Part shown: in pieces, positions 18,340 to 35,836 of the stretch
Numbering within the stretch: the stretch's first letter is position 1
Layout: every line of letters starts with the position of its first letter
Source: a virus
Lineage: Duplodnaviria > Heunggongvirae > Uroviricota > Caudoviricetes
IMG/VR virus record: IMGVR_UViG_2558860290_000008
Location: 1-36,050 of that record
Length of the DNA stretch: 36,050 bases
Direction: 5' to 3' (one strand)
Notes under the pieces: generated by a model
The model's input: the letters and a program-made list of their open reading frames with translations, nothing else
Told to the model about the DNA's origin: nothing
Database searches by the model: none
Program-made: the position numbers and the translations under genes

Positions 18340-18415
18340 TGGTGCTGGTTAACGGACTTGAACCGCTACCCATTCGCTTACAAGGCGACCGCTCTACCAT
18401 TGGAGCTAAACCAGC
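18340..18415 (-). tRNA. tRNA-Thr (anticodon UGU), 76 nt
   Basis: Hand-folded cloverleaf: 7-bp acceptor stem (GCUGGUU/AACCAGC), D arm GCUC/GAGC with a GG loop, anticodon loop CUUGUAA, T arm with TTCAAGT loop, discriminator A and encoded CCA. Confidence 0.7.
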
Positions 18416-18420
18416 ATATT

Positions 18421-18495
18421 TGGCGGGACAGCGTGGACTCGAACCACGATAAGAAGGTTAACAGCCTTCCGTAATGACCTTTATACGACTGACCC
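18421..18495 (-). tRNA. tRNA-Asn-like (anticodon GUU), 75 nt, with one acceptor-stem mismatch
   Basis: Hand-folded: anticodon stem GAAGG/CCUUC, loop CUGUUAA, T arm CGUGG-TTCGAGT-CCACG, encoded CCA. Acceptor stem has a U-U mismatch at 4:68 and the D stem is only 3 bp. Confidence 0.5.
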
Positions 18496-25382: not shown

Positions 25383-26099
<717 letters not shown>

Positions 26100-26211: not shown

Positions 26212-27051
26212 ATGAAGAATGGTTTTTATGCGACTTACCGCAGCAAAAATAAAGGGAAAGATAAGCGCTCAATAAACCTGTCTGTTTTCCTTAATTCTCT
26301 GCTGGCTGATAATCATCACCTGCAGGTTGGCTCCAATTATTTGTATATTCATAAAATCGATGGAAAAACTTTTCTCTTTACCAAAACAAATGACAAGAGT
26401 CTGGTTCAGAAGATAAATCGCTCTAAAGCTTCAGTTGAAGATATTAAGAACAGCCTCGCGGATGACGAATCATTGGGATTCCCATCTTTTTTGTTTGTTG
26501 AAGGCGACACCATTGGTTTTGCCAGAACTGTTTTCGGGCCGACCACATCCGATCTGACAGATTTTTTAATCGGGAAAGGAATGTCATTAAGCAGTGGAGA
26601 GCGCGTTCAGATAGAGCCACTGATGAGGGGAACCACCAAAGACGATGTTATGCATATGCATTTCATCGGCCGAACAACGGTGAAGGTAGAAGCCAAGCTA
26701 CCTGTATTTGGCGATATATTAAAGGTCTTAGGGGCAACAGATATTGAAGGGGAGCTTTTTGACTCATTGGATATAGTCATTAAGCCAAAATTTAAAAGGG
26801 ATATAAAAAAGGTTGCCAAGGATATTATTTTTAACCCGTCACCTCAATTTTCAGACATTAGCCTGCGGGCAAAAGATGAGGCCGGAGATATTTTAACAGA
26901 ACATTATCTATCAGAAAAAGGCCATCTCTCAGCGCCTCTGAACAAGGTCACCAATGCTGAGATAGCTGAAGAGATGGCATATTGCTACGCAAGAATGAAA
27001 AGTGATATACTGGAATGTTTTAAAAGGCAGGTGGGCAAAGTTAAGGATTAA
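26212..27051 (+). CDS. rexA: RexA (Rex exclusion system)
   Basis: 279-aa protein MKNGFYATYRSKNKGKDKRSINLSVFLNSLLADNHHLQVGSNYLYIHKIDGK, matching my recollection of lambda RexA; AT-rich. Confidence 0.9.
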   Translation: MKNGFYATYRSKNKGKDKRSINLSVFLNSLLADNHHLQVGSNYLYIHKIDGKTFLFTKTNDKSLVQKINRSKASVEDIKNSLADDESLGFPSFLFVEGDTIGFARTVFGPTTSDLTDFLIGKGMSLSSGERVQIEPLMRGTTKDDVMHMHFIGRTTVKVEAKLPVFGDILKVLGATDIEGELFDSLDIVIKPKFKRDIKKVAKDIIFNPSPQFSDISLRAKDEAGDILTEHYLSEKGHLSAPLNKVTNAEIAEEMAYCYARMKSDILECFKRQVGKVKD

Positions 27052-27066
27052 TTATCAGGAGTAATT

Positions 27067-27501
27067 ATGCGGAACAGAATCATGCCTGGTGTTTACATAG
27101 TAATAATTCCTTACGTTATCGTAAGCATTTGCTATCTCCTTTTCCGCCACTACATTCCTGGTGTTTCTTTTTCAGCTCATAGAGATGGTCTTGGGGCGAC
27201 ATTGTCATCATATGCAGGAACCATGATTGCAATCCTGATTGCTGCCTTGACGTTTCTAATCGGAAGCAGAACGCGCCGACTGGCCAAGATTAGAGAGTAT
27301 GGGTATATGACATCGGTAGTTATTGTCTATGCCCTTAGTTTTGTTGAGCTTGGAGCTTTGTTTTTCTGCGGGTTATTGCTTCTTTCCAGCATAAGCGGCT
27401 ACATGATACCCACTATCGCCATCGGCATTGCCTCTGCATCGTTCATTCATATATGCATCCTTGTTTTCCAACTATATAATTTGACCAGAGAACAAGAATA
27501 A
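27067..27501 (+). CDS. rexB: RexB (membrane component of Rex exclusion)
   Basis: 144-aa polytopic membrane protein MRNRIMPGVYIVIIPYVIVSICYLLF, matching my recollection of lambda RexB. Confidence 0.9.
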   Translation: MRNRIMPGVYIVIIPYVIVSICYLLFRHYIPGVSFSAHRDGLGATLSSYAGTMIAILIAALTFLIGSRTRRLAKIREYGYMTSVVIVYALSFVELGALFFCGLLLLSSISGYMIPTIAIGIASASFIHICILVFQLYNLTREQE

Positions 27502-27675: not shown

Positions 27676-27737
27676 ACCATCTGCGGTGATAAATTATCTC
27701 TGGCGGTGTTGACATAAATACCACTGGCGGTGATACT
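27676..27737 (+). promoter_or_regulatory. Left operator OL1-OL3 and pL promoter
   Basis: TTGACA (27709-27714) and GATACT (27732-27737) with three lambda-type operator repeats (TATCACCGCCAGTGGTA type); matches the lambda pL sequence as I recall it. Confidence 0.9.
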
Positions 27738-28005: not shown

Positions 28006-28332
28006 ATGGATGCACAAACACGCCGCCGCGAACGTCGCGCAGAGAAACAGGCTCAATGGAAAGCAGCAAATCCCCTGTTGGTTGGGGTAAGCGCAAAACC
28101 AGTTAACCGCCCTATTCTCTCGCTGAATCGCAAACCGAAATCACGAGTAGAAAGCGCACTGAATCCGATAGACCTTACAGTGCTGGCTGAATACCACGAA
28201 CAGATTGAAAGCAACCTGCAACGTATTGAGCGCAAGAATCAGCGCACATGGTACAGCAAGCCACGCAGTGAAATGGGTGTGACTTGTGTTGGTCGCCAGA
28301 AAATGAAATTAGGCAGCAAACCACTTATTTGA
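28006..28332 (+). CDS. N: Antitermination protein N
   Basis: MDAQTRRRERRAEKQAQWKAANPLLVGVSAKPVNRPILSLNRKPKSRVESALNPIDLTVLAEYHEQIESNLQRIERKNQRTWYSKP, matching lambda N with a divergent C-terminus. Confidence 0.95.
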   Translation: MDAQTRRRERRAEKQAQWKAANPLLVGVSAKPVNRPILSLNRKPKSRVESALNPIDLTVLAEYHEQIESNLQRIERKNQRTWYSKPRSEMGVTCVGRQKMKLGSKPLI

Positions 28333-28340
28333 GGTGAGAT

Positions 28341-28427
28341 ATGGAAGAAGAATTTGAAGAGTTCGAAGAGCATCCTCAGGATGTGATGGAACAATACCAG
28401 GACTATCCGTATGACTACGACTATTGA
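28341..28427 (+). CDS. Small acidic ORF (28 aa), lambda orf28-like
   Basis: GAGG ribosome-binding site, then MEEEFEEFEEHPQDVMEQYQDYPYDYDY; overlaps the ral start. Recalled as the lambda orf28 position. Confidence 0.4.
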   Translation: MEEEFEEFEEHPQDVMEQYQDYPYDYDY

Positions 28428-28611
28428 TAAAAATCAATGGTGTGGACAATTCAAGCGATGCAATGGATGCAAGCTGCAATCGGAATGCATGGTTAAGCCT
28501 GAAGAAATGTTTCCTGTAATGGAAGATGGGAAATATGTCGATAAATGGGCAATACGAACGACGGCAATGATTGCCAGAGAACTTGGTAAACAGAACAACA
28601 AGGCTGCCTGA
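28411..28611 (+). CDS. ral: Ral restriction-alleviation protein
   Basis: 66-aa protein MTTTIDKNQWCGQFKRCNGCKLQSECMVKPEEMFPVMEDGKYVDKWAIRTTAMIARELGKQNNKAA, matching my recollection of lambda Ral. Confidence 0.85.
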   Translation: MTTTIDKNQWCGQFKRCNGCKLQSECMVKPEEMFPVMEDGKYVDKWAIRTTAMIARELGKQNNKAA

Positions 28612-29819: not shown

Positions 29820-29971
29820 GTTTTACAGATAACTGGTCAGACGAAGAATTCATTCGTCAGATGAAAGATTTAATCGGTAACGAAGGAGATATTCATGTCA
29901 CTTGCAACCACAGTGAAGGAGAGCAAGTTACAGAGACGCATGTACACGCAGAAAGCTCTCTGGTATCGCCA
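29816..29971 (+). CDS. Small acidic protein (51 aa), possibly Arf-like
   Basis: Hand translation MSFTDNWSDEEFIRQMKDLIGNEGDIHVTCNHSEGEQVTETHVHAESSLVSP; ATGA-coupled to kil, upstream of erf as in the P22 gene order. Confidence 0.4.
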
Positions 29972-30075
29972 TAATGGCGACCGCGAAGGAATGCGGGTAT
30001 GCCTTAATTTGTCCCGAGTCGAAGTATTAAATCAGCGTTATTTCCTTGGGCCGTGTCCATTCTGAGAACAATCAT

Positions 30076-30681
30076 ATGAGCAAAGAATTTTACGCAAGAC
30101 TGGCAGCTATTCAGGAGAATCTGAACGCGCCAAAGAATCAGTACAACTCATTCGGTAAATATAAATACAGAAGCTGCGAAGACATTCTTGAAGGCGTTAA
30201 GCCGCTACTGAATGGCCTGTTTTTATCAATCAGCGATGAAGTTGTGTTGATTGGTGATCGGTATTACGTGAAAGCCACGGCAACTATTACCGATGGCGAA
30301 AACAGTCATACAGCAACCGCTCTTGCACGAGAGGAAGAAAGCAAGAAAGGAATGGATTCTGCACAAGTTACGGGAGCTACAAGCTCTTATGCACGCAAGT
30401 ATTGCCTCAATGGTTTATTCGGCATTGATGATGCGAAAGATGCAGATACAGACGAGCATAAACATCAGCAGAACGCAGCAGCAAAGCAATCAAAGCCATC
30501 ACCTACACCTGAACAGGTTTTAAAGGCATTCACTGACGCAGCAATGCAGAAAAACACCGTAGAAGAGCTTAAACAGGCGTTCGCCAAAGCGTGGAAGATG
30601 CTCGAAGGCACACCGGAGCAGCACAAAGCGCAGGACGTTTACAACATCAGACGAGATGAATTAGAAGGAGCGGCTGCTTAA
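30076..30681 (+). CDS. erf: Erf-type single-strand annealing recombinase
   Basis: MSKEFYARLAAIQENLNAPKNQYNSFGKYKYRSCEDILEGVKPLL, closely resembling P22 Erf as I recall it; start at the internal Met of ORF 30046..30681. Confidence 0.7.
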   Translation: MSKEFYARLAAIQENLNAPKNQYNSFGKYKYRSCEDILEGVKPLLNGLFLSISDEVVLIGDRYYVKATATITDGENSHTATALAREEESKKGMDSAQVTGATSSYARKYCLNGLFGIDDAKDADTDEHKHQQNAAAKQSKPSPTPEQVLKAFTDAAMQKNTVEELKQAFAKAWKMLEGTPEQHKAQDVYNIRRDELEGAAA

Positions 30682-31064
30682 TGGCACATTCGATTACTGT
30701 AAGACTAAACAAGCCAGCAAGAGAGTTTCAGGCCGGGGAAAATATCGGATTCAACATCCGTGCTGGCGTTCAGTATTACGATCGCCAGACAAAAAAGAAA
30801 GAATGGACAAACTACAGCGCCGTTGTATTTGCCAAGCCGGGAGCGCAAGCGGATTACTACCGTAGTGTTCTTGTTGAAGGTGGCATTGTAGAAATTACCG
30901 GAGAAAACACCAGGGTTGATGTTTATCAGGGGCAAAATGGTCAATCAATCACTCTTGAATTACTGAATGCAAAGATTGGATTTGCAACTTCAGGAAACAG
31001 CCAACAGCAGCAAAGTAGCAATCATCAAAATCATCCTGAATACGACGATTCAATCCCCTTCTAG
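30681..31064 (+). CDS. ssb: Short single-stranded DNA-binding protein
   Basis: 127-aa protein with an OB-fold-like core and an Asn/Gln-rich linker, ending in the SSB-signature acidic tail EYDDSIPF. Confidence 0.6.
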   Translation: MAHSITVRLNKPAREFQAGENIGFNIRAGVQYYDRQTKKKEWTNYSAVVFAKPGAQADYYRSVLVEGGIVEITGENTRVDVYQGQNGQSITLELLNAKIGFATSGNSQQQQSSNHQNHPEYDDSIPF

Positions 31065-31087
31065 ATTAGCAAAATAAGGATTCCATT

Positions 31088-31384
31088 ATGCCAGCGCCTC
31101 TGTATGGTGCGGATGACCCGCGCCGCTGTTCCGGCAATTCCGTATCGGAGGTGCTGGAAAATATCAAGAATAATCTCGACGCGTTTCTTGCTCTGCCACC
31201 AGAAACAAAAGCAGAACGGAAGTACCGACGCGATATACAACTCGCAGAAAAACAGGAAAAAGACCGAATAAACGAAACATCAATCCGACCATTCCGCAAA
31301 GCCACATATACCCACTTCCCTGAATATATCGACCCGCGCCTGCGTAATTACCGCTCACGCTATGGCGCTATCAGTAATGACTGA
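31088..31384 (+). CDS. Hypothetical protein (98 aa)
   Basis: ORF in the early-left accessory region; no family recognised. Confidence 0.5.
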
Positions 31385-31394
31385 GGAATTTACC

Positions 31395-31559
31395 ATGAGA
31401 GGACTTGCATACAATCCCGGCATTCTTCCGGCAGAAATGATTATTCGCCAACGCGTAAAGCCAATGCCATCGAGAGAAGAATTGCTTAAGCGGAATAGTT
31501 TCGGTTCTGTTAATGACAACAAATATCTGAATGCGATGTTGCGGAGTGGGAAGAAATGA
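31395..31559 (+). CDS. Hypothetical small protein (54 aa)
   Basis: GAGGAA ribosome-binding site 5 nt before ATG 31395 ([21 protein letters not shown]...); ATGA-type overlap with the next gene. Confidence 0.45.
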
Positions 31560-32116
31560 AACAAATGTCACTAATTGAGATGGATGGTTTTCTGAAAGGT
31601 AAATGCATCCCACGAGATTTAAAGGTTAACGAAACAAACGCTGAATATCTGGTGCGTAAATTTGCTGAAGCGGAGGCCAAGATTTCGGCTCTGTCCGAAG
31701 ACCACCAGAAAGCGATTGAGTCAATTAAGCAGGCTGATGCGGCTGTTAAGTTGGCACACGAGAAGTTTTCGGCGCTGGCGGCGGAGAATGCGGGGCTGAA
31801 GTCTGGCGCTATGGACGAAATCAAGGTTATCAACCGTGGAGGGCAGGCATATTGCGTAAAAGATGGAGTGCAAGTTAATCCCATGTATGCAAGAGGGTGG
31901 AATGACTATCGCGCAAAGTCTCTGCAATCAGACACCCCAGCCACCGATGCTTTTCTGGCTGAAGTGCGGGCGCAGGCGTTTAATGACCTTTGCTCGGCGT
32001 TCGTTAAACACGCGAATCTCGCGGGTATGGATGATGGTGAGCTAGTGAGGCTTAAATATGCGACGGACGCCCTGCTGCATTGTGCAGACCAACTTCGCAA
32101 GGGATTGCAGTCATGA
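31556..32116 (+). CDS. Hypothetical protein (186 aa, predicted coiled coil)
   Basis: ORF in the accessory region upstream of the lar-like gene; no family recognised. Confidence 0.5.
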
Positions 32117-32355
32117 GCAACCTACTACCATGTCCATTCTGTGGCGGCGCAGCGCACGTTGCCAGTGAAGCAGATCACCCTGAATATGGCTCTGGCGGTC
32201 GATTCTATTTCGTTCGATGCGGTACGTGTCGCGCTCAATCTGGTAGCAAATATGCAGCGCCTGGAAATGACTGCGCGATTTTTTATTCAGAGGTTAGAGC
32301 AGAGTGGAATCAGCGAGCAAAGGAGGCAACCAGTGAGCGGAAAAAGAATGACTAA
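32113..32355 (+). CDS. lar: Lar-family restriction-alleviation protein (zinc-ribbon)
   Basis: [44 protein letters not shown], with the CPFCG ... RCGTC motif pair typical of Lar; ATGA overlap with the upstream gene. Confidence 0.65.
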   Translation: MSNLLPCPFCGGAAHVASEADHPEYGSGGRFYFVRCGTCRAQSGSKYAAPGNDCAIFYSEVRAEWNQRAKEATSERKKND

Positions 32356-32557
32356 CAGAGAGCTTGTTGATGCCGCGATTAAGCTTGCTGGTGATTTTTA
32401 TTCAATGATGGGGTACACGCATCGCCCAGGCTTCAAATATTGGGAGTCTCCGCACCCGCAAGAGCAACTGGTATTTCAAATGGCCTGCCGTGCTTTTGAG
32501 GTTATTCGCGGTTCTGATGTGATGGACGCCGTTGCCGACTTGGAGGATGAAGAGTGA
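32348..32557 (+). CDS. Hypothetical small protein (69 aa)
   Basis: Start at the internal Met (MTNRELVDAAIKLAG...) overlapping the lar stop; the ORF-track N-terminal extension overlaps lar and was not used. Confidence 0.45.
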   Translation: MTNRELVDAAIKLAGDFYSMMGYTHRPGFKYWESPHPQEQLVFQMACRAFEVIRGSDVMDAVADLEDEE

Positions 32558-33336
32558 TCAAGATTGACTATCAGGCACTGCGTAAAGCGGCGCAACTGGC
32601 AACACAGGGTGAATGGGTCGCATTTATTTCGTCTGGTACTGGTACATATGCGGTGCATACACCTGGTGATAAACGATGTGAAGACGTTATCAAATGGACC
32701 GGCTTTGATGGACAGAACAACGCAGAGAACAACGCTCGTTATATCGCAGCTTTCAACCCTGAAGTAGTGCAGGCGTTGCTTGACGAGCTGGAAGGCAAAG
32801 ACAAGCTGATTTCAGAGCTTAGAAAACAATGCGCTGAATGGGAGCGAAAGGCATTAAGCAACTTTGAAGAGTGTGCTGCGATGGCTGAACGTATCGAAGA
32901 GATGCAGACAAAATCTGCACCAGATTCGTTTGGCATCATCGGTGAAAATATTCGAACACAGGATAATCGAATAACGTCAGATCCTATGTTTTGTGTGTAT
33001 CAAAAGCGCGAAATCGTTGTTGATGCTGATTATGACTATGACCGGATTGTCTGGGTTGATGAAGATGGCAATGAAGCCAATAAACTCCAAAGTCGTCGTC
33101 TCGAACTACTTCATGAAAACTTTCGGGAGCCACCAGAAAAATGGAGGCGCGTTGCTGTGAAAGATATTGATGAATTCGTTACCTGCTGTTTCACCGAACA
33201 GGGTTGTAAAGACTACCTGGCAGCCAATGGTCACAATCTTCGCTTGCCATTTATATATGTAAAAAGCGGTTTCAGGAACGCTGAATATATCGGCATAAGA
33301 AACTGGCTTGCTGGCATTCGCTTCAAAGGAGAGTGA
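32554..33336 (+). CDS. Ead/Ea22-like protein
   Basis: 260-aa protein whose N-terminus (MIKIDYQALRKAAQLATQGEWV) and central coiled coil resemble Ea22-like proteins found between recombination genes and int in lambdoid phages. Confidence 0.5.
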   Translation: MIKIDYQALRKAAQLATQGEWVAFISSGTGTYAVHTPGDKRCEDVIKWTGFDGQNNAENNARYIAAFNPEVVQALLDELEGKDKLISELRKQCAEWERKALSNFEECAAMAERIEEMQTKSAPDSFGIIGENIRTQDNRITSDPMFCVYQKREIVVDADYDYDRIVWVDEDGNEANKLQSRRLELLHENFREPPEKWRRVAVKDIDEFVTCCFTEQGCKDYLAANGHNLRLPFIYVKSGFRNAEYIGIRNWLAGIRFKGE

Positions 33337-33337
33337 G

Positions 33338-34105
33338 ATGAGCAATATCACTAAAGAACGTATCGAATTATTCATTAAAAATCCGCTTGATAACGGACTT
33401 ACTCGTGGCGAACAAATGGAACTGGCACGAATTGCACTGGCATCGCTGGAAGCAGAACCGGTTGCAGTAAACGACGACATGGCTTACGCATTCCATCACG
33501 CATTGTCAGATTCATCGCTAGGCGCTGATGAAGTAGAGGAAATTAAGGCCGGTTTGCGTGCTGCCTTTGCCAACGTCACTATCCAACCAGTGCCGGTAGT
33601 GCCGGATGAAATCGAGCCAGACGATAGCAATACGTTTGATTATGTTGATGGCTGGAACGCCTGCCGCGCCACCATGCTTCATGGTGCCAAACCTGTAAGC
33701 CAGACTTACAACTTGCCAGAATTAATCGAAGGCATGGAAGTTTCCATTGATGTAAGCACTTGTGATGCTGATTTAGGTAATCGCTATTTCGGCACCGTCA
33801 CCGAGGCGTTAGAACTTGATACAGCCAAGAATGGTTACATCCTCCTGGTTCAGGACGCAGAGCCAAACTTCGATGTAAATGGCAACTCTCCGGTAACTCC
33901 GGATGGTTGGATAAGCTGTAGTGATCGAATGCCGGAAGACACCAAAATGTTACTGGCATTTAGTCAAGGTAAAATCGTGGCCGCATATTGGAACTGGGTT
34001 GTAAATCCAATTGATTACAAAAAATATAGAGCTTTCACGTATTTATCAGGATATATCTTGGATGACGTAACTCACTGGATGCCGCTACCAGAGCCTCCAC
34101 TTTGA
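33338..34105 (+). CDS. DUF551-like protein
   Basis: C-terminal ...DDVTHWMPLPEPPL, typical of the DUF551 C-terminus common in enterobacterial prophages; start at the internal Met MSNITKER. Confidence 0.5.
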   Translation: MSNITKERIELFIKNPLDNGLTRGEQMELARIALASLEAEPVAVNDDMAYAFHHALSDSSLGADEVEEIKAGLRAAFANVTIQPVPVVPDEIEPDDSNTFDYVDGWNACRATMLHGAKPVSQTYNLPELIEGMEVSIDVSTCDADLGNRYFGTVTEALELDTAKNGYILLVQDAEPNFDVNGNSPVTPDGWISCSDRMPEDTKMLLAFSQGKIVAAYWNWVVNPIDYKKYRAFTYLSGYILDDVTHWMPLPEPPL

Positions 34106-34201
34106 AAGCGAAGCTTATACATATCTTTTACATCAGCAATCTATTGTTAATCTCCAATCAATGTTACGTTGTCATCTCACTCATGCTTTGGAGGTAGTGA
34201 T

Positions 34202-34381
34202 ATGTCTTGTCCAAAATGCGGTTCTGGAAATATTGCAAAAGAAAAAACAATGCGTGGATGGTCTGGTGATTATGTGTGCTGCGATTGCGGATACAACGAC
34301 TCTAAAGACGCATTTGGAGAGCGTGGTAAAAACGAGTTTGTCAAAATTAATAAAGAACGCGAAGGCAACGAAAAAAGCTAA
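34202..34381 (+). CDS. Small zinc-ribbon protein (59 aa)
   Basis: MSCPKCGSGNIAKEKTMRGWSGDYVCCDCGYNDSKD with CxxC ... CxxC; GGAGG ribosome-binding site. Confidence 0.5.
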   Translation: MSCPKCGSGNIAKEKTMRGWSGDYVCCDCGYNDSKDAFGERGKNEFVKINKEREGNEKS

Positions 34382-34445
34382 TTTATTTATTCATATATGA
34401 AAACAATGTAACCAATATTCGAATTGAAGAACTGAAAGAACACCA

Positions 34446-34470
34446 AACCGCCTGATGGCGGTTTTTTATT
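34446..34470 (+). terminator. Intrinsic terminator upstream of xis
   Basis: AACCGCC-TGAT-GGCGGTT hairpin followed by TTTTTATT. Confidence 0.7.
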
Positions 34471-34485
34471 GCCTGGAGAATTAAG

Positions 34486-34677
34486 ATGACCGATACCAGC
34501 CTGATTCCTGAGAAAGAAGTGATGAACAAGCTCGGTGTTTCATCACGTCAGACAATCTGGAACTATACCAAACGACACGGATTTCCGAAGCCAGTCAGAA
34601 CCCACCCCAAATCATACCTTCGTGAAGCTGTTGAAGGGTGGATTCTTAACGGTGGCGTTAATCAGAAATGCTCCTGA
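34486..34677 (+). CDS. xis: Excisionase / AlpA-family DNA-binding protein
   Basis: 63-aa protein with a helix-turn-helix (LGVSSRQTIWNYTKRHGFPKP) typical of AlpA/Xis; converges on int, with the two 3' ends overlapping by 20 nt. Confidence 0.7.
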   Translation: MTDTSLIPEKEVMNKLGVSSRQTIWNYTKRHGFPKPVRTHPKSYLREAVEGWILNGGVNQKCS

Positions 34678-35836
34678 TGTGCCAGAACAATTTATCAGCG
34701 TGAAGCTCATACGCTTTGCGCTGAGCCTCTATCCAGTCGTGTTTATTGTATACGGACATTATCCCGCCAAGTTCATGACCGAGCATTCGCTCAGTAACAT
34801 GAGGCTCGACATTCATCTCGGACAGACGTGTAACAAGCGTTCTTCTGAAATCATGTGTTCGCCAGTAACCCAGATCCATCCCTCCCCTTATTCTATTTAC
34901 GAATCGGTTGGCTGCAGCGATGCTGATCGGTTTGTTTATGTCTTCTCCAGGGAAAAGAACATCATTGTACGTTGTCATGGCCTTTTCGAGAAAAGGCTTA
35001 ATTTGTTCGAAGATTGGACGGCGGATAACATTACCCATCTTGCTATGCTCTTTCGGTACGGTCCATACGTTGTCCAGCAGGTCAAATTCTGTCTTTGTTG
35101 CCAGCCTAAGCTCTGAGAGCCTCGCCCCCCACAGCATAAGCATCTGATGAAGGAGCTTATTTGACGTAGACGCACGGCTTCTTTCAATAGCAAGCCAAAT
35201 CTTAGCCAGTTCGTGATACGACAGTACCCGATCCCCTACCTCAGCGCGGGAGCCGAAGTCCCTTGGTTGGATGCTCATAATTGCGCAACTATCTATCAAC
35301 TGACGCCGCATGCACCAACTTATTGCTGATCTTAGTTGACTTAGCACCTGCCTTGCTCGGCGTGGATTATCTCTTTCTTCTTCGGTAAGCAGGTCAACCC
35401 ATTGCTTAACCGTGATAGAAGATGCCGGACGATTAGGAAAGGCGTCATGCATGCGCTTCATAACCGTTGATCGGTAAAGTGCCTGGGTCTTTTCTCTGAG
35501 AGTTGTAGAGACGTAGTTGTCGAACCAGTAGTCGAGACACTGAGCGACCGTCATGGAGTTCTCCACCTTCTCTTCAAAATAGGTGCGTGGATCCGTTCCT
35601 GAGAAATAGAGCTTTCGCAAGTCAGCAGTGATCTGTCTGGCATCCTTCAAAGACAGGGATGGGTATCGACCAAGCCCAAGTCGATTAGGCTTGCCATGCC
35701 AGCGATAGCGGTACTGGAACTGGATGACCCCCTTCGGTGAAATTCGTACGCTGAGGCCATCGGCATCAGCCACTTCTTGTGGGCCCGAATATGGTTTACC
35801 ATAAATAGTACGCAGTTTTGTGTCGCTTATAGCCAT
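34658..35836 (-). CDS. int: Tyrosine integrase (P4-type family)
   Basis: 392-aa protein with an N-terminal arm-binding-type domain and C-terminal catalytic-region motifs (WRTHDFRRT, HELGG ... VYNKH-type R/H/Y); sits at the prophage end. Confidence 0.9.
   Translation of the reverse strand: MAISDTKLRTIYGKPYSGPQEVADADGLSVRISPKGVIQFQYRYRWHGKPNRLGLGRYPSLSLKDARQITADLRKLYFSGTDPRTYFEEKVENSMTVAQCLDYWFDNYVSTTLREKTQALYRSTVMKRMHDAFPNRPASSITVKQWVDLLTEEERDNPRRARQVLSQLRSAISWCMRRQLIDSCAIMSIQPRDFGSRAEVGDRVLSYHELAKIWLAIERSRASTSNKLLHQMLMLWGARLSELRLATKTEFDLLDNVWTVPKEHSKMGNVIRRPIFEQIKPFLEKAMTTYNDVLFPGEDINKPISIAAANRFVNRIRGGMDLGYWRTHDFRRTLVTRLSEMNVEPHVTERMLGHELGGIMSVYNKHDWIEAQRKAYELHADKLFWHIRSISD

Follow-up and report, generated by a model that had tools for sequence, protein, structure and literature searches.

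Five adjacent genes of a probable lambda/P22 hybrid prophage are known P22-type early-left accessory genes

Five adjacent plus-strand genes at positions 31088-32557 of a tailed-phage sequence (IMG/VR record IMGVR_UViG_2558860290_000008; the whole stretch of 36,050 nucleotides that was analysed is called the window here) are routine, already known accessory genes of the P22 early-left type, and not a new anti-defence unit. Very probably the segment comprises middle and distal portions of an early-left (pL) operon, under N antitermination, in an Escherichia coli prophage that is a lambda/P22 hybrid; it corresponds to the abc2-to-'ea' region of P22 and consists of five exchangeable cassettes. The best explanation of its overlapping stop and start codons, held with the same high confidence, is compact polycistronic packing and not a common mechanism. 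A preliminary description of this DNA, made from the sequence alone, had listed three unrecognised proteins followed by a Lar-like protein and a small unknown one. The five ORFs exist with the sizes it gave, and each of them has many homologues; however, 'unrecognised' is wrong for the first protein, which is Abc2, and overstated for the second and third, which belong to the DUF2737/orf56 and EaE families.

The operon context of the segment is apparent on both of its sides. All five genes lie within a stretch of about 6.7 kb that runs from a pL-like promoter (27709..27737, plus strand; TTGACA-17 nt-GATACT) to a hairpin that resembles an intrinsic terminator in both directions and closes the plus-strand operon (34445..34464); promoter and hairpin were called by consensus scans only. 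A consensus scan of the plus strand between 29850 and 34445 gave no promoter-like or terminator-like site. Because the five genes sit within this stretch with no internal sites of either kind, they are not a self-contained unit. The pL-like promoter is placed 3′ of the cI, RexA and RexB genes and 5′ of N, and it is likely the start of the transcript that covers the five genes. The window contains cI, RexA, RexB, Kil and, upstream of abc2, Ral (28411-28611), and among the gene calls of the source record itself there are also Pfam matches to N and CIII. Directly before the segment are erf (30046..30681, plus strand), encoding an Erf-type single-strand annealing recombinase (Pfam ERF, E 2.4e-44; 75% identity to P22 Erf), and a gene for an SSB-like protein (30681..31064, plus strand; phrog_44 single-strand DNA binding protein, E 3e-27) whose homologue in HF4s is annotated ssb. 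The next operon gene after the segment encodes a 260-aa Ead/Ea22-like protein (32554..33336, plus strand; PF13935 at residues 3-117, E 5.8e-24). It is followed on the same strand by a gene for an EaA-like mosaic protein with a C-terminal DUF551 domain (33338..34105; PF04448, E 9.2e-21) and by the last gene of the operon, which encodes a small zinc ribbon homologous to EaG (34169..34381; 95% identity to P22 EaG, and 22.7 bits on the Lar Pfam model, under its gathering score of 28.6).

From ral to eaG, the gene order is collinear with that of Salmonella phage P22 (NC_002371), in which abc2-orf56-eaE-...-eaD-eaA-eaG are arranged and oriented in the same way with respect to ral, kil and erf. Both termini of the EaA-like protein are shared with P22 EaA: the N-terminal 42 aa are 83% identical, and the C-terminal region is 43% identical. 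Against this common background, individual genes differ. The SSB-like gene fills the slot that abc1 holds in P22, and the Lar-family gene and the 69-aa gene stand in the place of orf45 and eaF. Also unlike P22, the window has a lambda-type immunity region (cI, RexAB, N) and a P4-type integrase, whose gene is on the other strand and is accompanied by that of an AlpA-like partner.

By sequence, the first gene of the segment (31088-31384, 98 aa) encodes Abc2, anti-RecBCD protein 2. The protein matches PF11043 over positions 1-97 of 97 (E 1e-43; 147.9 bits against a cut-off of 25), belongs to phrog_656, abc2 (E 6.9e-50), and aligns end to end with PDB 8b1t_A/8b1u (residues 1-98 against 1-97, E 7.7e-40). 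Its identity to P22 Abc2 is 70%. The N-terminal 23 residues are the same as those of P22 Abc2 in the Abc2-RecBCD structures (PDB 8B1T/8B1U), and helix 2 and the C-terminal third account for most of the approximately 30% of residues that differ; both abc2 genes are linked to erf. Arg67-Pro68 of Abc2, within a 10-aa stretch of the 8b1t_A alignment, are kept. The neighbourhood is that expected of abc2, with erf two genes 5′ and the SSB-like gene between them. The earlier reading of this ORF as an unknown is refuted on the preliminary description's own terms, by confident homology to a known protein of other function. Abc2 binds RecC and its Pro68 engages PpiB (Wilkinson et al. 2022, PMC9836394), and we infer that the 98-aa variant would bind RecC as well. 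In modifying RecBCD and not blocking it, Abc2 would let the phage's own Erf recombinase act.

The second gene (31395-31559, 54 aa) is a homologue of P22 orf56 (75% identity) and matches PF10930, or DUF2737, over positions 1-53 of 53 (E 4.9e-31; 106.8 bits, cut-off 25). Our search of the literature on DUF2737 returned one incidental mention and no functional data. The third gene (31556-32116, 186 aa) encodes an EaE-family protein and occupies the EaE slot, directly after orf56. Its best PHROG, phrog_614 (E 2.2e-61), is also the best PHROG of P22 EaE (4.6e-55), and the two proteins have 29% pairwise identity over residues 70-186. Homologues are numerous, amounting to at least about 8,000 90%-identity clusters at E <= 0.001. 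Searches with the 186-aa protein gave no Pfam match at E <= 0.01, and sequence and profile searches of the PDB returned nothing meaningful, with no match to the solved C-terminal domain of Ea22. In the AlphaFold2 model (mean pLDDT 63.8, pTM 0.28), residues 26-82 form one long helix, with block-mean pLDDT up to 92, and the homologues vary by a 28-residue (four-heptad) indel in this helical region; the coiled coil that had been predicted from the sequence is therefore plausible. We propose from the model a layout of a conserved N-terminal part, the coiled coil, a small beta unit and a variable C-terminal helical hairpin. An assignment of the protein as Ead/Ea22-like (PF13935) was rejected: the profile does not match it, and the Ead_Ea22 match belongs to the gene at 32554-33336, a true family member just downstream. 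With lambda Ea22/Ead_Ea22 of the exo-xis region, the 186-aa gene shares its non-essential early-left position. The layout is comparable to the N-terminal domain, coiled coil and C-terminal domain of lambda Ea22, as is the mosaic evolution, and with Ead_Ea22-type proteins only PHROG-level modules (phrog_368) are held in common.

The fourth gene (32113-32355, 80 aa) encodes a Lar-like zinc-ribbon protein, and on this point the preliminary description was correct. The protein scores 38.4 bits on PF14354, above the gathering score of 28.6, and carries the complete four-cysteine Lar signature PCPFCGG...C..C...WN.R; its 29.6 bits on the subfamily model TIGR03655 are under the cut-off of 39.6. When 60 sequences including K-12 RalR were aligned, P6, C7, P8, F9, C10, G11, G12, C36, C39, W65, N66 and R68 were invariant or nearly so (59-60 of 60). 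Activities suggested for genes 2 to 5 are predictions, and for this gene the most likely one, drawn by analogy only from the founding member of the family, is that, at an early stage of infection, it would modulate a restriction-modification enzyme of type I or some other activity directed at DNA. What RalR itself does is contested, since it is described either as alleviating restriction or as a DNase toxin (PMC4041452, citing King and Murray 1995; Guo et al. 2014).

The product of the fifth gene is a small three-helix protein with an acidic tail, translated either from an ATG (32348-32557, 69 aa) or from a GTG (32333-32557, 74 aa) that lies 6 nt 3′ of the sequence AAGGAGG at 32320-32326. Its family includes 87 90%-identity clusters from the Enterobacterales and 416 50%-identity clusters at E <= 1e-3. 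The domain comprises three helices, a conserved G-Y...G-F-K-F/Y...H-P-x-E loop and the acidic tail, and it occurs alone, in tandem, or C-terminal on otherwise unrelated proteins. The N-terminal parts of 20 longer members contained no Pfam domain except for one sub-threshold match to AbiEi_4, and the 69-aa protein itself matched nothing in Pfam, the PDB or PADLOC. Structure prediction, which together with fold searches had been proposed as a check, gave a weak model for the 186-aa protein and a confident one for the 69-aa protein (three helices, pLDDT 91, pTM 0.78). A fold search with the 69-aa model gave no PDB match at E < 1. In the BFVD, its only convincing match came from Acinetobacter phage Presley, a 179-aa protein that is itself uncharacterised (TM 0.86, E 0.012). 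The idea that the 69-aa protein is a fragment of the larger phrog_4132 (179 positions) was discarded: because positions 32-93 of that profile match an out-of-frame translation of lar, this part of it is an over-called ORF. This artefact of annotation, in which lar translated out of frame is joined to the 69-aa gene, appears in the source record and in the PHROG profile.

The genes around homologues of the fifth gene in Kluyvera, Proteus, Izhakiella and Xenorhabdus are unrelated to those seen here. Most likely, the small helical product of this gene would bind some host or phage protein. We describe it as a candidate for a widespread, previously undescribed phage domain that could be a new host-protein-binding or anti-defence module, perhaps with a combined anti-restriction phenotype beside Lar, but we rate this reading as quite unlikely.

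The junctions between the genes are of several kinds. All of them had been said to be ATGA-type overlaps, and this is true of the 54-aa/186-aa and 186-aa/Lar junctions. It is not true of the abc2/orf56 junction, where the genes do not overlap but are separated by 10 nt that include a separate GAGG, nor of the Lar/69-aa junction, where 8 nt overlap (ATGACTAA), the overlap growing to 23 nt with the GTG start. A GTGA overlap joins the 69-aa gene to the gene at 32554-33336; with this exit into the next gene included, ATGA/GTGA overlaps are found at three junctions only. Because the same overlaps run on into the next genes, there is no unit boundary at 32557. What had been described as one co-translated unit is a longer operon, in which Lar and the 69-aa gene are independent cassettes. 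On the minus strand of the segment, 0 of 5 ORFs tested had a PHROG match, and a search for repeats within 31000-33400 found only short, chance-level matches.

Comparison with several hundred related loci establishes which of these genes travel together. Identities of adjacent genes alternate when the segment is aligned with single relatives, at 74/98/69/97% for HF4s and 74/93/49/100/100/39% for NZ_OZ039045. In IMG/VR, orf56 immediately follows abc2 in 69 of the 77 abc2-anchored loci, and an EaE-family gene follows orf56 in 70 of 79; these locus sets are the best 80 matches per query, and the co-occurrence fractions are descriptive and biased to close relatives. Among the best 80 matches for each, Lar was found in none of the loci with the fifth gene (0/80), and the fifth gene in none of the loci with Lar (0/80). 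Of 5,426 complete E. coli genomes, only 4 have the two genes side by side. The conserved co-occurrence or adjacency of an obligate pair is thus absent from these 160 IMG/VR loci and from the E. coli genomes. Homology restricted to the fifth gene begins at approximately 32317, just 5′ of its Shine-Dalgarno sequence, and Lar homology in other phages ends at residue 76. We conclude that abc2-orf56-eaE is a conserved backbone and that Lar and the 69-aa gene are separate cassettes; the linkage within the backbone could reflect a common function. The five genes are cassettes that are exchanged independently of one another, and we attribute their joining at gene boundaries to lambdoid mosaic recombination.

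These observations bear on other explanations of the segment. The five genes might be one co-translated anti-defence module built around Lar, the unknowns being its partners or further inhibitors of defence. A Lar-family protein is indeed present, three ATGA/GTGA overlaps (two internal, one exit) and one 8-nt overlap link the genes, and the abc1/abc2 neighbourhood is treated as a phage accessory region with counter-defence genes (Silas et al.). However, the first gene is Abc2, with another known target, and the junction that follows it has no overlap; the overlaps that would define the module continue beyond it, and in other loci Lar hardly ever lies next to the 69-aa gene. In addition, none of the five proteins matches a PADLOC model, whereas RexA and RexB elsewhere in the window do, and we therefore place none of the five in a known defence system. 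We consider such a module very unlikely: the notion of an anti-defence zone holds for the known genes Abc2, Ral and Lar, but not as one new unit. Still less probable, to the point of being hardly credible, is a RalR/RalA-type toxin-antitoxin locus formed by the Lar-like gene and the overlapping 69-aa ORF. The model for it is the K-12 Rac prophage, in which ralR (lar) also comes after recombination genes and near int, encodes the zinc-ribbon signature PCPFCG...C..C...WN.R common to the 80-aa protein, and overlaps by the same 8 nt with a 69-aa ORF downstream of it (ydaC/rcbA). An antisense sRNA is located within that ORF; according to PMC4041452, RalR is reported to act as a DNase toxin, with the antitoxin RalA antisense to ydaC. 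The likeness in geometry is close, but identity between the Lar-like protein and RalR is only 26% over 42 aa, the rarity of the Lar/69-aa pair again applies, and the 69-aa protein has no similarity to YdaC. Moreover, the 69-aa ORF clearly encodes a protein, given its confident model and its many clusters, whereas ydaC is reported to be non-coding (PMC4041452). A RalA-like antisense element was not found here: there was no Rfam match, no inverted repeat of at least 12 nt between 32113-32355 and 32356-32557, and no minus-strand promoter-like site there in a consensus scan. The analogy of the Lar/69-aa pair to RalR/RalA or RcbA is largely refuted by the low identity to RalR and the missing YdaC, Rfam and inverted-repeat matches.

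An alternative of a different kind is that the orf56, EaE-like and 69-aa genes serve phage development, for example through control of the lysis-lysogeny balance or of replication and recombination, and not anti-defence. Lysogeny is favoured by lambda Ea22, which is built of three parts, a short domain at the N-terminus, a coiled coil and a C-terminal domain (PMC10834534; PMC7093339), and the EaE-like protein has a comparable three-part layout. The tight linkage of orf56 and EaE to abc2 points in the same direction, as does one genome in which a homologue of the fifth gene is flanked by genes for a putative replication initiator and a DnaB-like helicase, two neighbours that were read from ORF translations and not family-tested. 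Against this, neither sequence nor profile comparison relates the 186-aa protein to Ea22 or Pfam Ead_Ea22, and the contexts of the 69-aa gene are heterogeneous. A developmental role for these three genes is unlikely on balance, if worth some weight. The reading that we prefer is that of known P22-type accessory genes, packed compactly in an early-left operon.

For the biology of these phages, the 69-aa family is noteworthy as a confidently folded family of 416 clusters that has no Pfam model. For the segment as a whole, the finding matters mainly as one of correct annotation, in that a known anti-RecBCD gene and P22 'ea' genes are no longer flagged as a new cluster. More generally, where stop and start codons overlap in a lambdoid early operon, the genes concerned need not form a functional unit.

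The five small plus-strand ORFs between 31088 and 32557 belong to the usual run from abc2 to the 'ea' genes in an early-left operon of P22 type, carried by a prophage with lambda-type immunity. The window carries a lambdoid prophage and corresponds to the complete E. coli contig AHHL01000262.1 (36,050 bp; assembly GCA_000498195.1). From ~0.3 to 24.5 kb most large ORFs lie on the minus strand and, read from gene order, are putative structural, lysis, late-control and replication genes; adjacent tRNA-Thr(TGT) and tRNA-Asn(GTT) genes (18340-18495, minus strand) also lie inside the prophage. The immunity region starts at ~25.4 kb on the plus strand, with a cI-like S24/HTH repressor (25386-26099) and the exclusion genes RexA (26212-27051; PADLOC E 9e-110) and RexB (27067-27501). 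A promoter scan then places a pL-like promoter (TTGACA-17-GATACT) at 27709-27737, followed on the same strand by an N-like ORF (28006-28332; 100% identity to a RefSeq protein annotated antitermination protein N, with an N36 Pfam match in the source record), Ral (28411-28611; PF11058, E 1.6e-48), CIII and Kil, Erf (30046-30681) and an SSB-like protein (30681-31064). Downstream of the five ORFs come an Ead/Ea22-like gene, an EaA-like DUF551 gene and an EaG homologue, and a bidirectional intrinsic-terminator-like hairpin (34445-34464) closes the series. Because the promoter-like and terminator sites lie outside, and a scan of the plus strand from 29850 to 34445 gave no promoter-like or terminator-like site, the five ORFs form an interior segment of a single long early-left operon.

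Two features differ from P22. Where P22 has abc1, the window has the SSB-like protein, ending ...DDSIPF; thus Erf and Abc2 are paired here with the prophage's own SSB, and Abc1 is replaced. In addition, int is co-directional with pL in lambda and P22, whereas here it opposes the pL direction: the element ends with a plus-strand AlpA-like gene and a minus-strand P4-type integrase with an Arm-DNA-bind_3 domain (integrase region 34486-35836), which share a 20-nt overlap, the integrase converging on the early-left operon.

ORF reading upheld the five genes at their proposed sizes, and junctions were taken straight from the nucleotide sequence. The preliminary description had all of them overlapping in ATGA fashion; this holds for gene 2 (31395-31559, 54 aa) with gene 3 (31556-32116, 186 aa) and for gene 3 with gene 4 (32113-32355, 80 aa), but gene 1 (31088-31384, 98 aa) is separated from gene 2 by a 10-nt spacer containing GAGG, without overlap, and gene 4 overlaps gene 5 (32348-32557, 69 aa) by 8 nt (ATGACTAA). 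That overlap becomes 23 nt if gene 5 starts at an alternative GTG (32333), 6 nt past a strong AAGGAGG; the majority of database homologues are called as 74 aa, whereas conservation in the alignment starts from the internal Met. Gene 5 in turn overlaps the next gene by GTGA. Five minus-strand ORFs tested in the stretch gave no PHROG match (0/5). In place of lar and the 69-aa gene, the source record calls a single 123-aa ORF (32141-32557; also 4131-4502 in the related locus L173). Positions 32-93 of phrog_4132 match the out-of-frame lar translation (E 6e-23), and therefore this over-called ORF has been incorporated into a public profile.

Gene 1 encodes Abc2. It matches Pfam Anti-RecBCD_p2 over its full length (147.9 bits, E 1e-43), PHROG abc2, and PDB 8b1t chain A ('Anti-RecBCD protein 2') end to end (E 7.7e-40); it is 70% identical to P22 Abc2, with all 23 N-terminal residues identical and the Arg67-Pro68 site kept. 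In P22, Abc2 has an extended helical structure and binds RecC at its Chi-recognition (inactivated helicase) domains, leaving helicase activity unblocked; PpiB co-purifies, its active site occupied by Pro68, and Abc2 is proposed to redirect RecBCD products to the phage recombinase (Wilkinson et al., PMC9836394). Because Erf lies two genes upstream, the homologous protein in the window would redirect RecBCD products in the same way.

Genes 2 and 3 occupy the corresponding P22 positions. Gene 2 matches Pfam DUF2737 over its full length (106.8 bits) and is 75% identical to P22 orf56, to which we assign it; a literature search on DUF2737 gave no functional data. The best PHROG of gene 3, phrog_614 (E 2.2e-61), is also that of P22 EaE (4.6e-55), which shares its slot and 29% identity across the C-terminal two-thirds, and we classify gene 3 as an EaE-family protein. 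It matched neither Pfam Ead_Ea22 nor PDB chains. The AlphaFold2 model is weak overall (pLDDT 63.8); it has one confident long helix (26-82) together with a small beta unit and a helical hairpin. The family is very large, with at least ~8,000 90%-identity clusters at E <= 0.001, every one unnamed or misnamed 'HNH endonuclease'. Residues ~1-140 are conserved and include a 14-residue motif; in the family alignment (A1), the long helix differs between members by an exact 28-residue (four-heptad) indel, and C-terminal helical modules are freely swapped, all ending A-x-Q-L-R-K-G.

Gene 4 is assigned to the Lar-family zinc ribbons. It scores 38.4 against the Pfam Lar model (gathering score 28.6) and 29.6 against the narrower TIGR03655, under its cut-off of 39.6. 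In an alignment of 60 sequences, K-12 RalR among them, P6, C7, P8, F9, C10, G11, G12, C36, C39, W65, N66 and R68 are each kept in 59-60, and gene 4 has all twelve; with RalR itself it shares just 26% identity (42 residues). The EaG homologue (34169-34381; 95% identity to P22 EaG) is a second small zinc-ribbon gene, at 22.7 bits under the Lar gathering score of 28.6. The activity of the founding member is contested: its name refers to an activity that alleviates restriction (King and Murray 1995, as cited in PMC4041452), and Guo et al. (PMC4041452) describe RalR as a toxin with non-specific DNase activity, which the antisense sRNA RalA controls. Ral and the Lar-family gene are encoded in the same operon; because the phage also encodes Ral, we infer that a purely redundant anti-EcoKI role for gene 4 is not obvious.

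The Rac prophage offers a tempting parallel for genes 4 and 5, as its ralR is likewise a zinc-ribbon gene followed by a 69-aa ORF (ydaC/rcbA) that also overlaps it by 8 nt. The ralR/RalA analogy fails on several counts. Gene 5 has no similarity to YdaC, and the lar-gene 5 region gave no Rfam match, no inverted repeat of 12 nt or more between lar and the downstream ORF, and no antisense promoter-like site in our scan. Moreover, gene 5 clearly encodes a protein; ydaC, by contrast, is reported not to (PMC4041452).

Gene 5 belongs instead to a family for which Pfam has no model. Its predicted fold is three helices and an acidic tail, with confidence (pLDDT 91, pTM 0.78); searches by sequence, profile and fold gave no match in Pfam, PADLOC or PDB, and only one structural neighbour, an Acinetobacter phage protein that is uncharacterised, is convincing. 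When 1.84 billion representatives were searched with a profile, 416 50%-identity clusters passed E <= 1e-3. The domain occurs stand-alone, in tandem, or at the C-terminus of 100-300-aa proteins (relatives P0208, P0258, P0219, P0237, P0265 and others) whose varied N-termini contain no Pfam domain. Judged from ORF translations, it follows a putative DnaC-like gene in Kluyvera, and in Proteus and Xenorhabdus it adjoins genes that look like DNA methyltransferases. At another locus (L006, 3100-5640) a 90% identical copy overlaps a putative replication-initiator gene on one side and a DnaB-like helicase gene on the other; the assembly is labelled Chryseobacterium sp. 18061, which may reflect contamination, since the surrounding sequence looks enterobacterial-phage-like.

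The five genes had been proposed to form one co-translated unit, and this is not what we find. The overlaps run on past 32557 and so delimit no unit. When window proteins were mapped onto fetched related loci, identities of adjacent genes alternated sharply: phage HF4s gave 74/98/69/97% and one E. coli prophage 74/93/49/100/100/39%. Such alternation is the signature of lambdoid mosaicism. Among IMG/VR best matches, the gene directly after abc2 is orf56 in 69 of 77 loci, and the one after orf56 is of the EaE family in 70 of 79; abc2-orf56-EaE is a conserved backbone, likewise in P22, ST104 and HK620. Lar and gene 5 are separable: Lar was absent from all 80 best-matching IMG/VR loci with gene 5, gene 5 from all 80 with Lar, and of 5,426 complete E. 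coli genomes only 4 had contiguous Lar and gene-5 DNA. In other E. coli genomes homology begins at ~32317, shortly 5′ of the gene 5 Shine-Dalgarno, and Lar homology in other loci stops at residue 76; the Lar/gene 5 overlap is therefore a recombination joint.

The zone does have host-takeover functions, as had been suggested, but those found are already catalogued, and a discrete or novel system is not supported. As for the proteins first listed as unrecognised, gene 1 is recognisable as Abc2, and genes 2 and 3 fall in known families. The missing functions of the orf56/DUF2737, EaE and gene-5 families are not specific to this locus; they represent a general gap across thousands of prophages.
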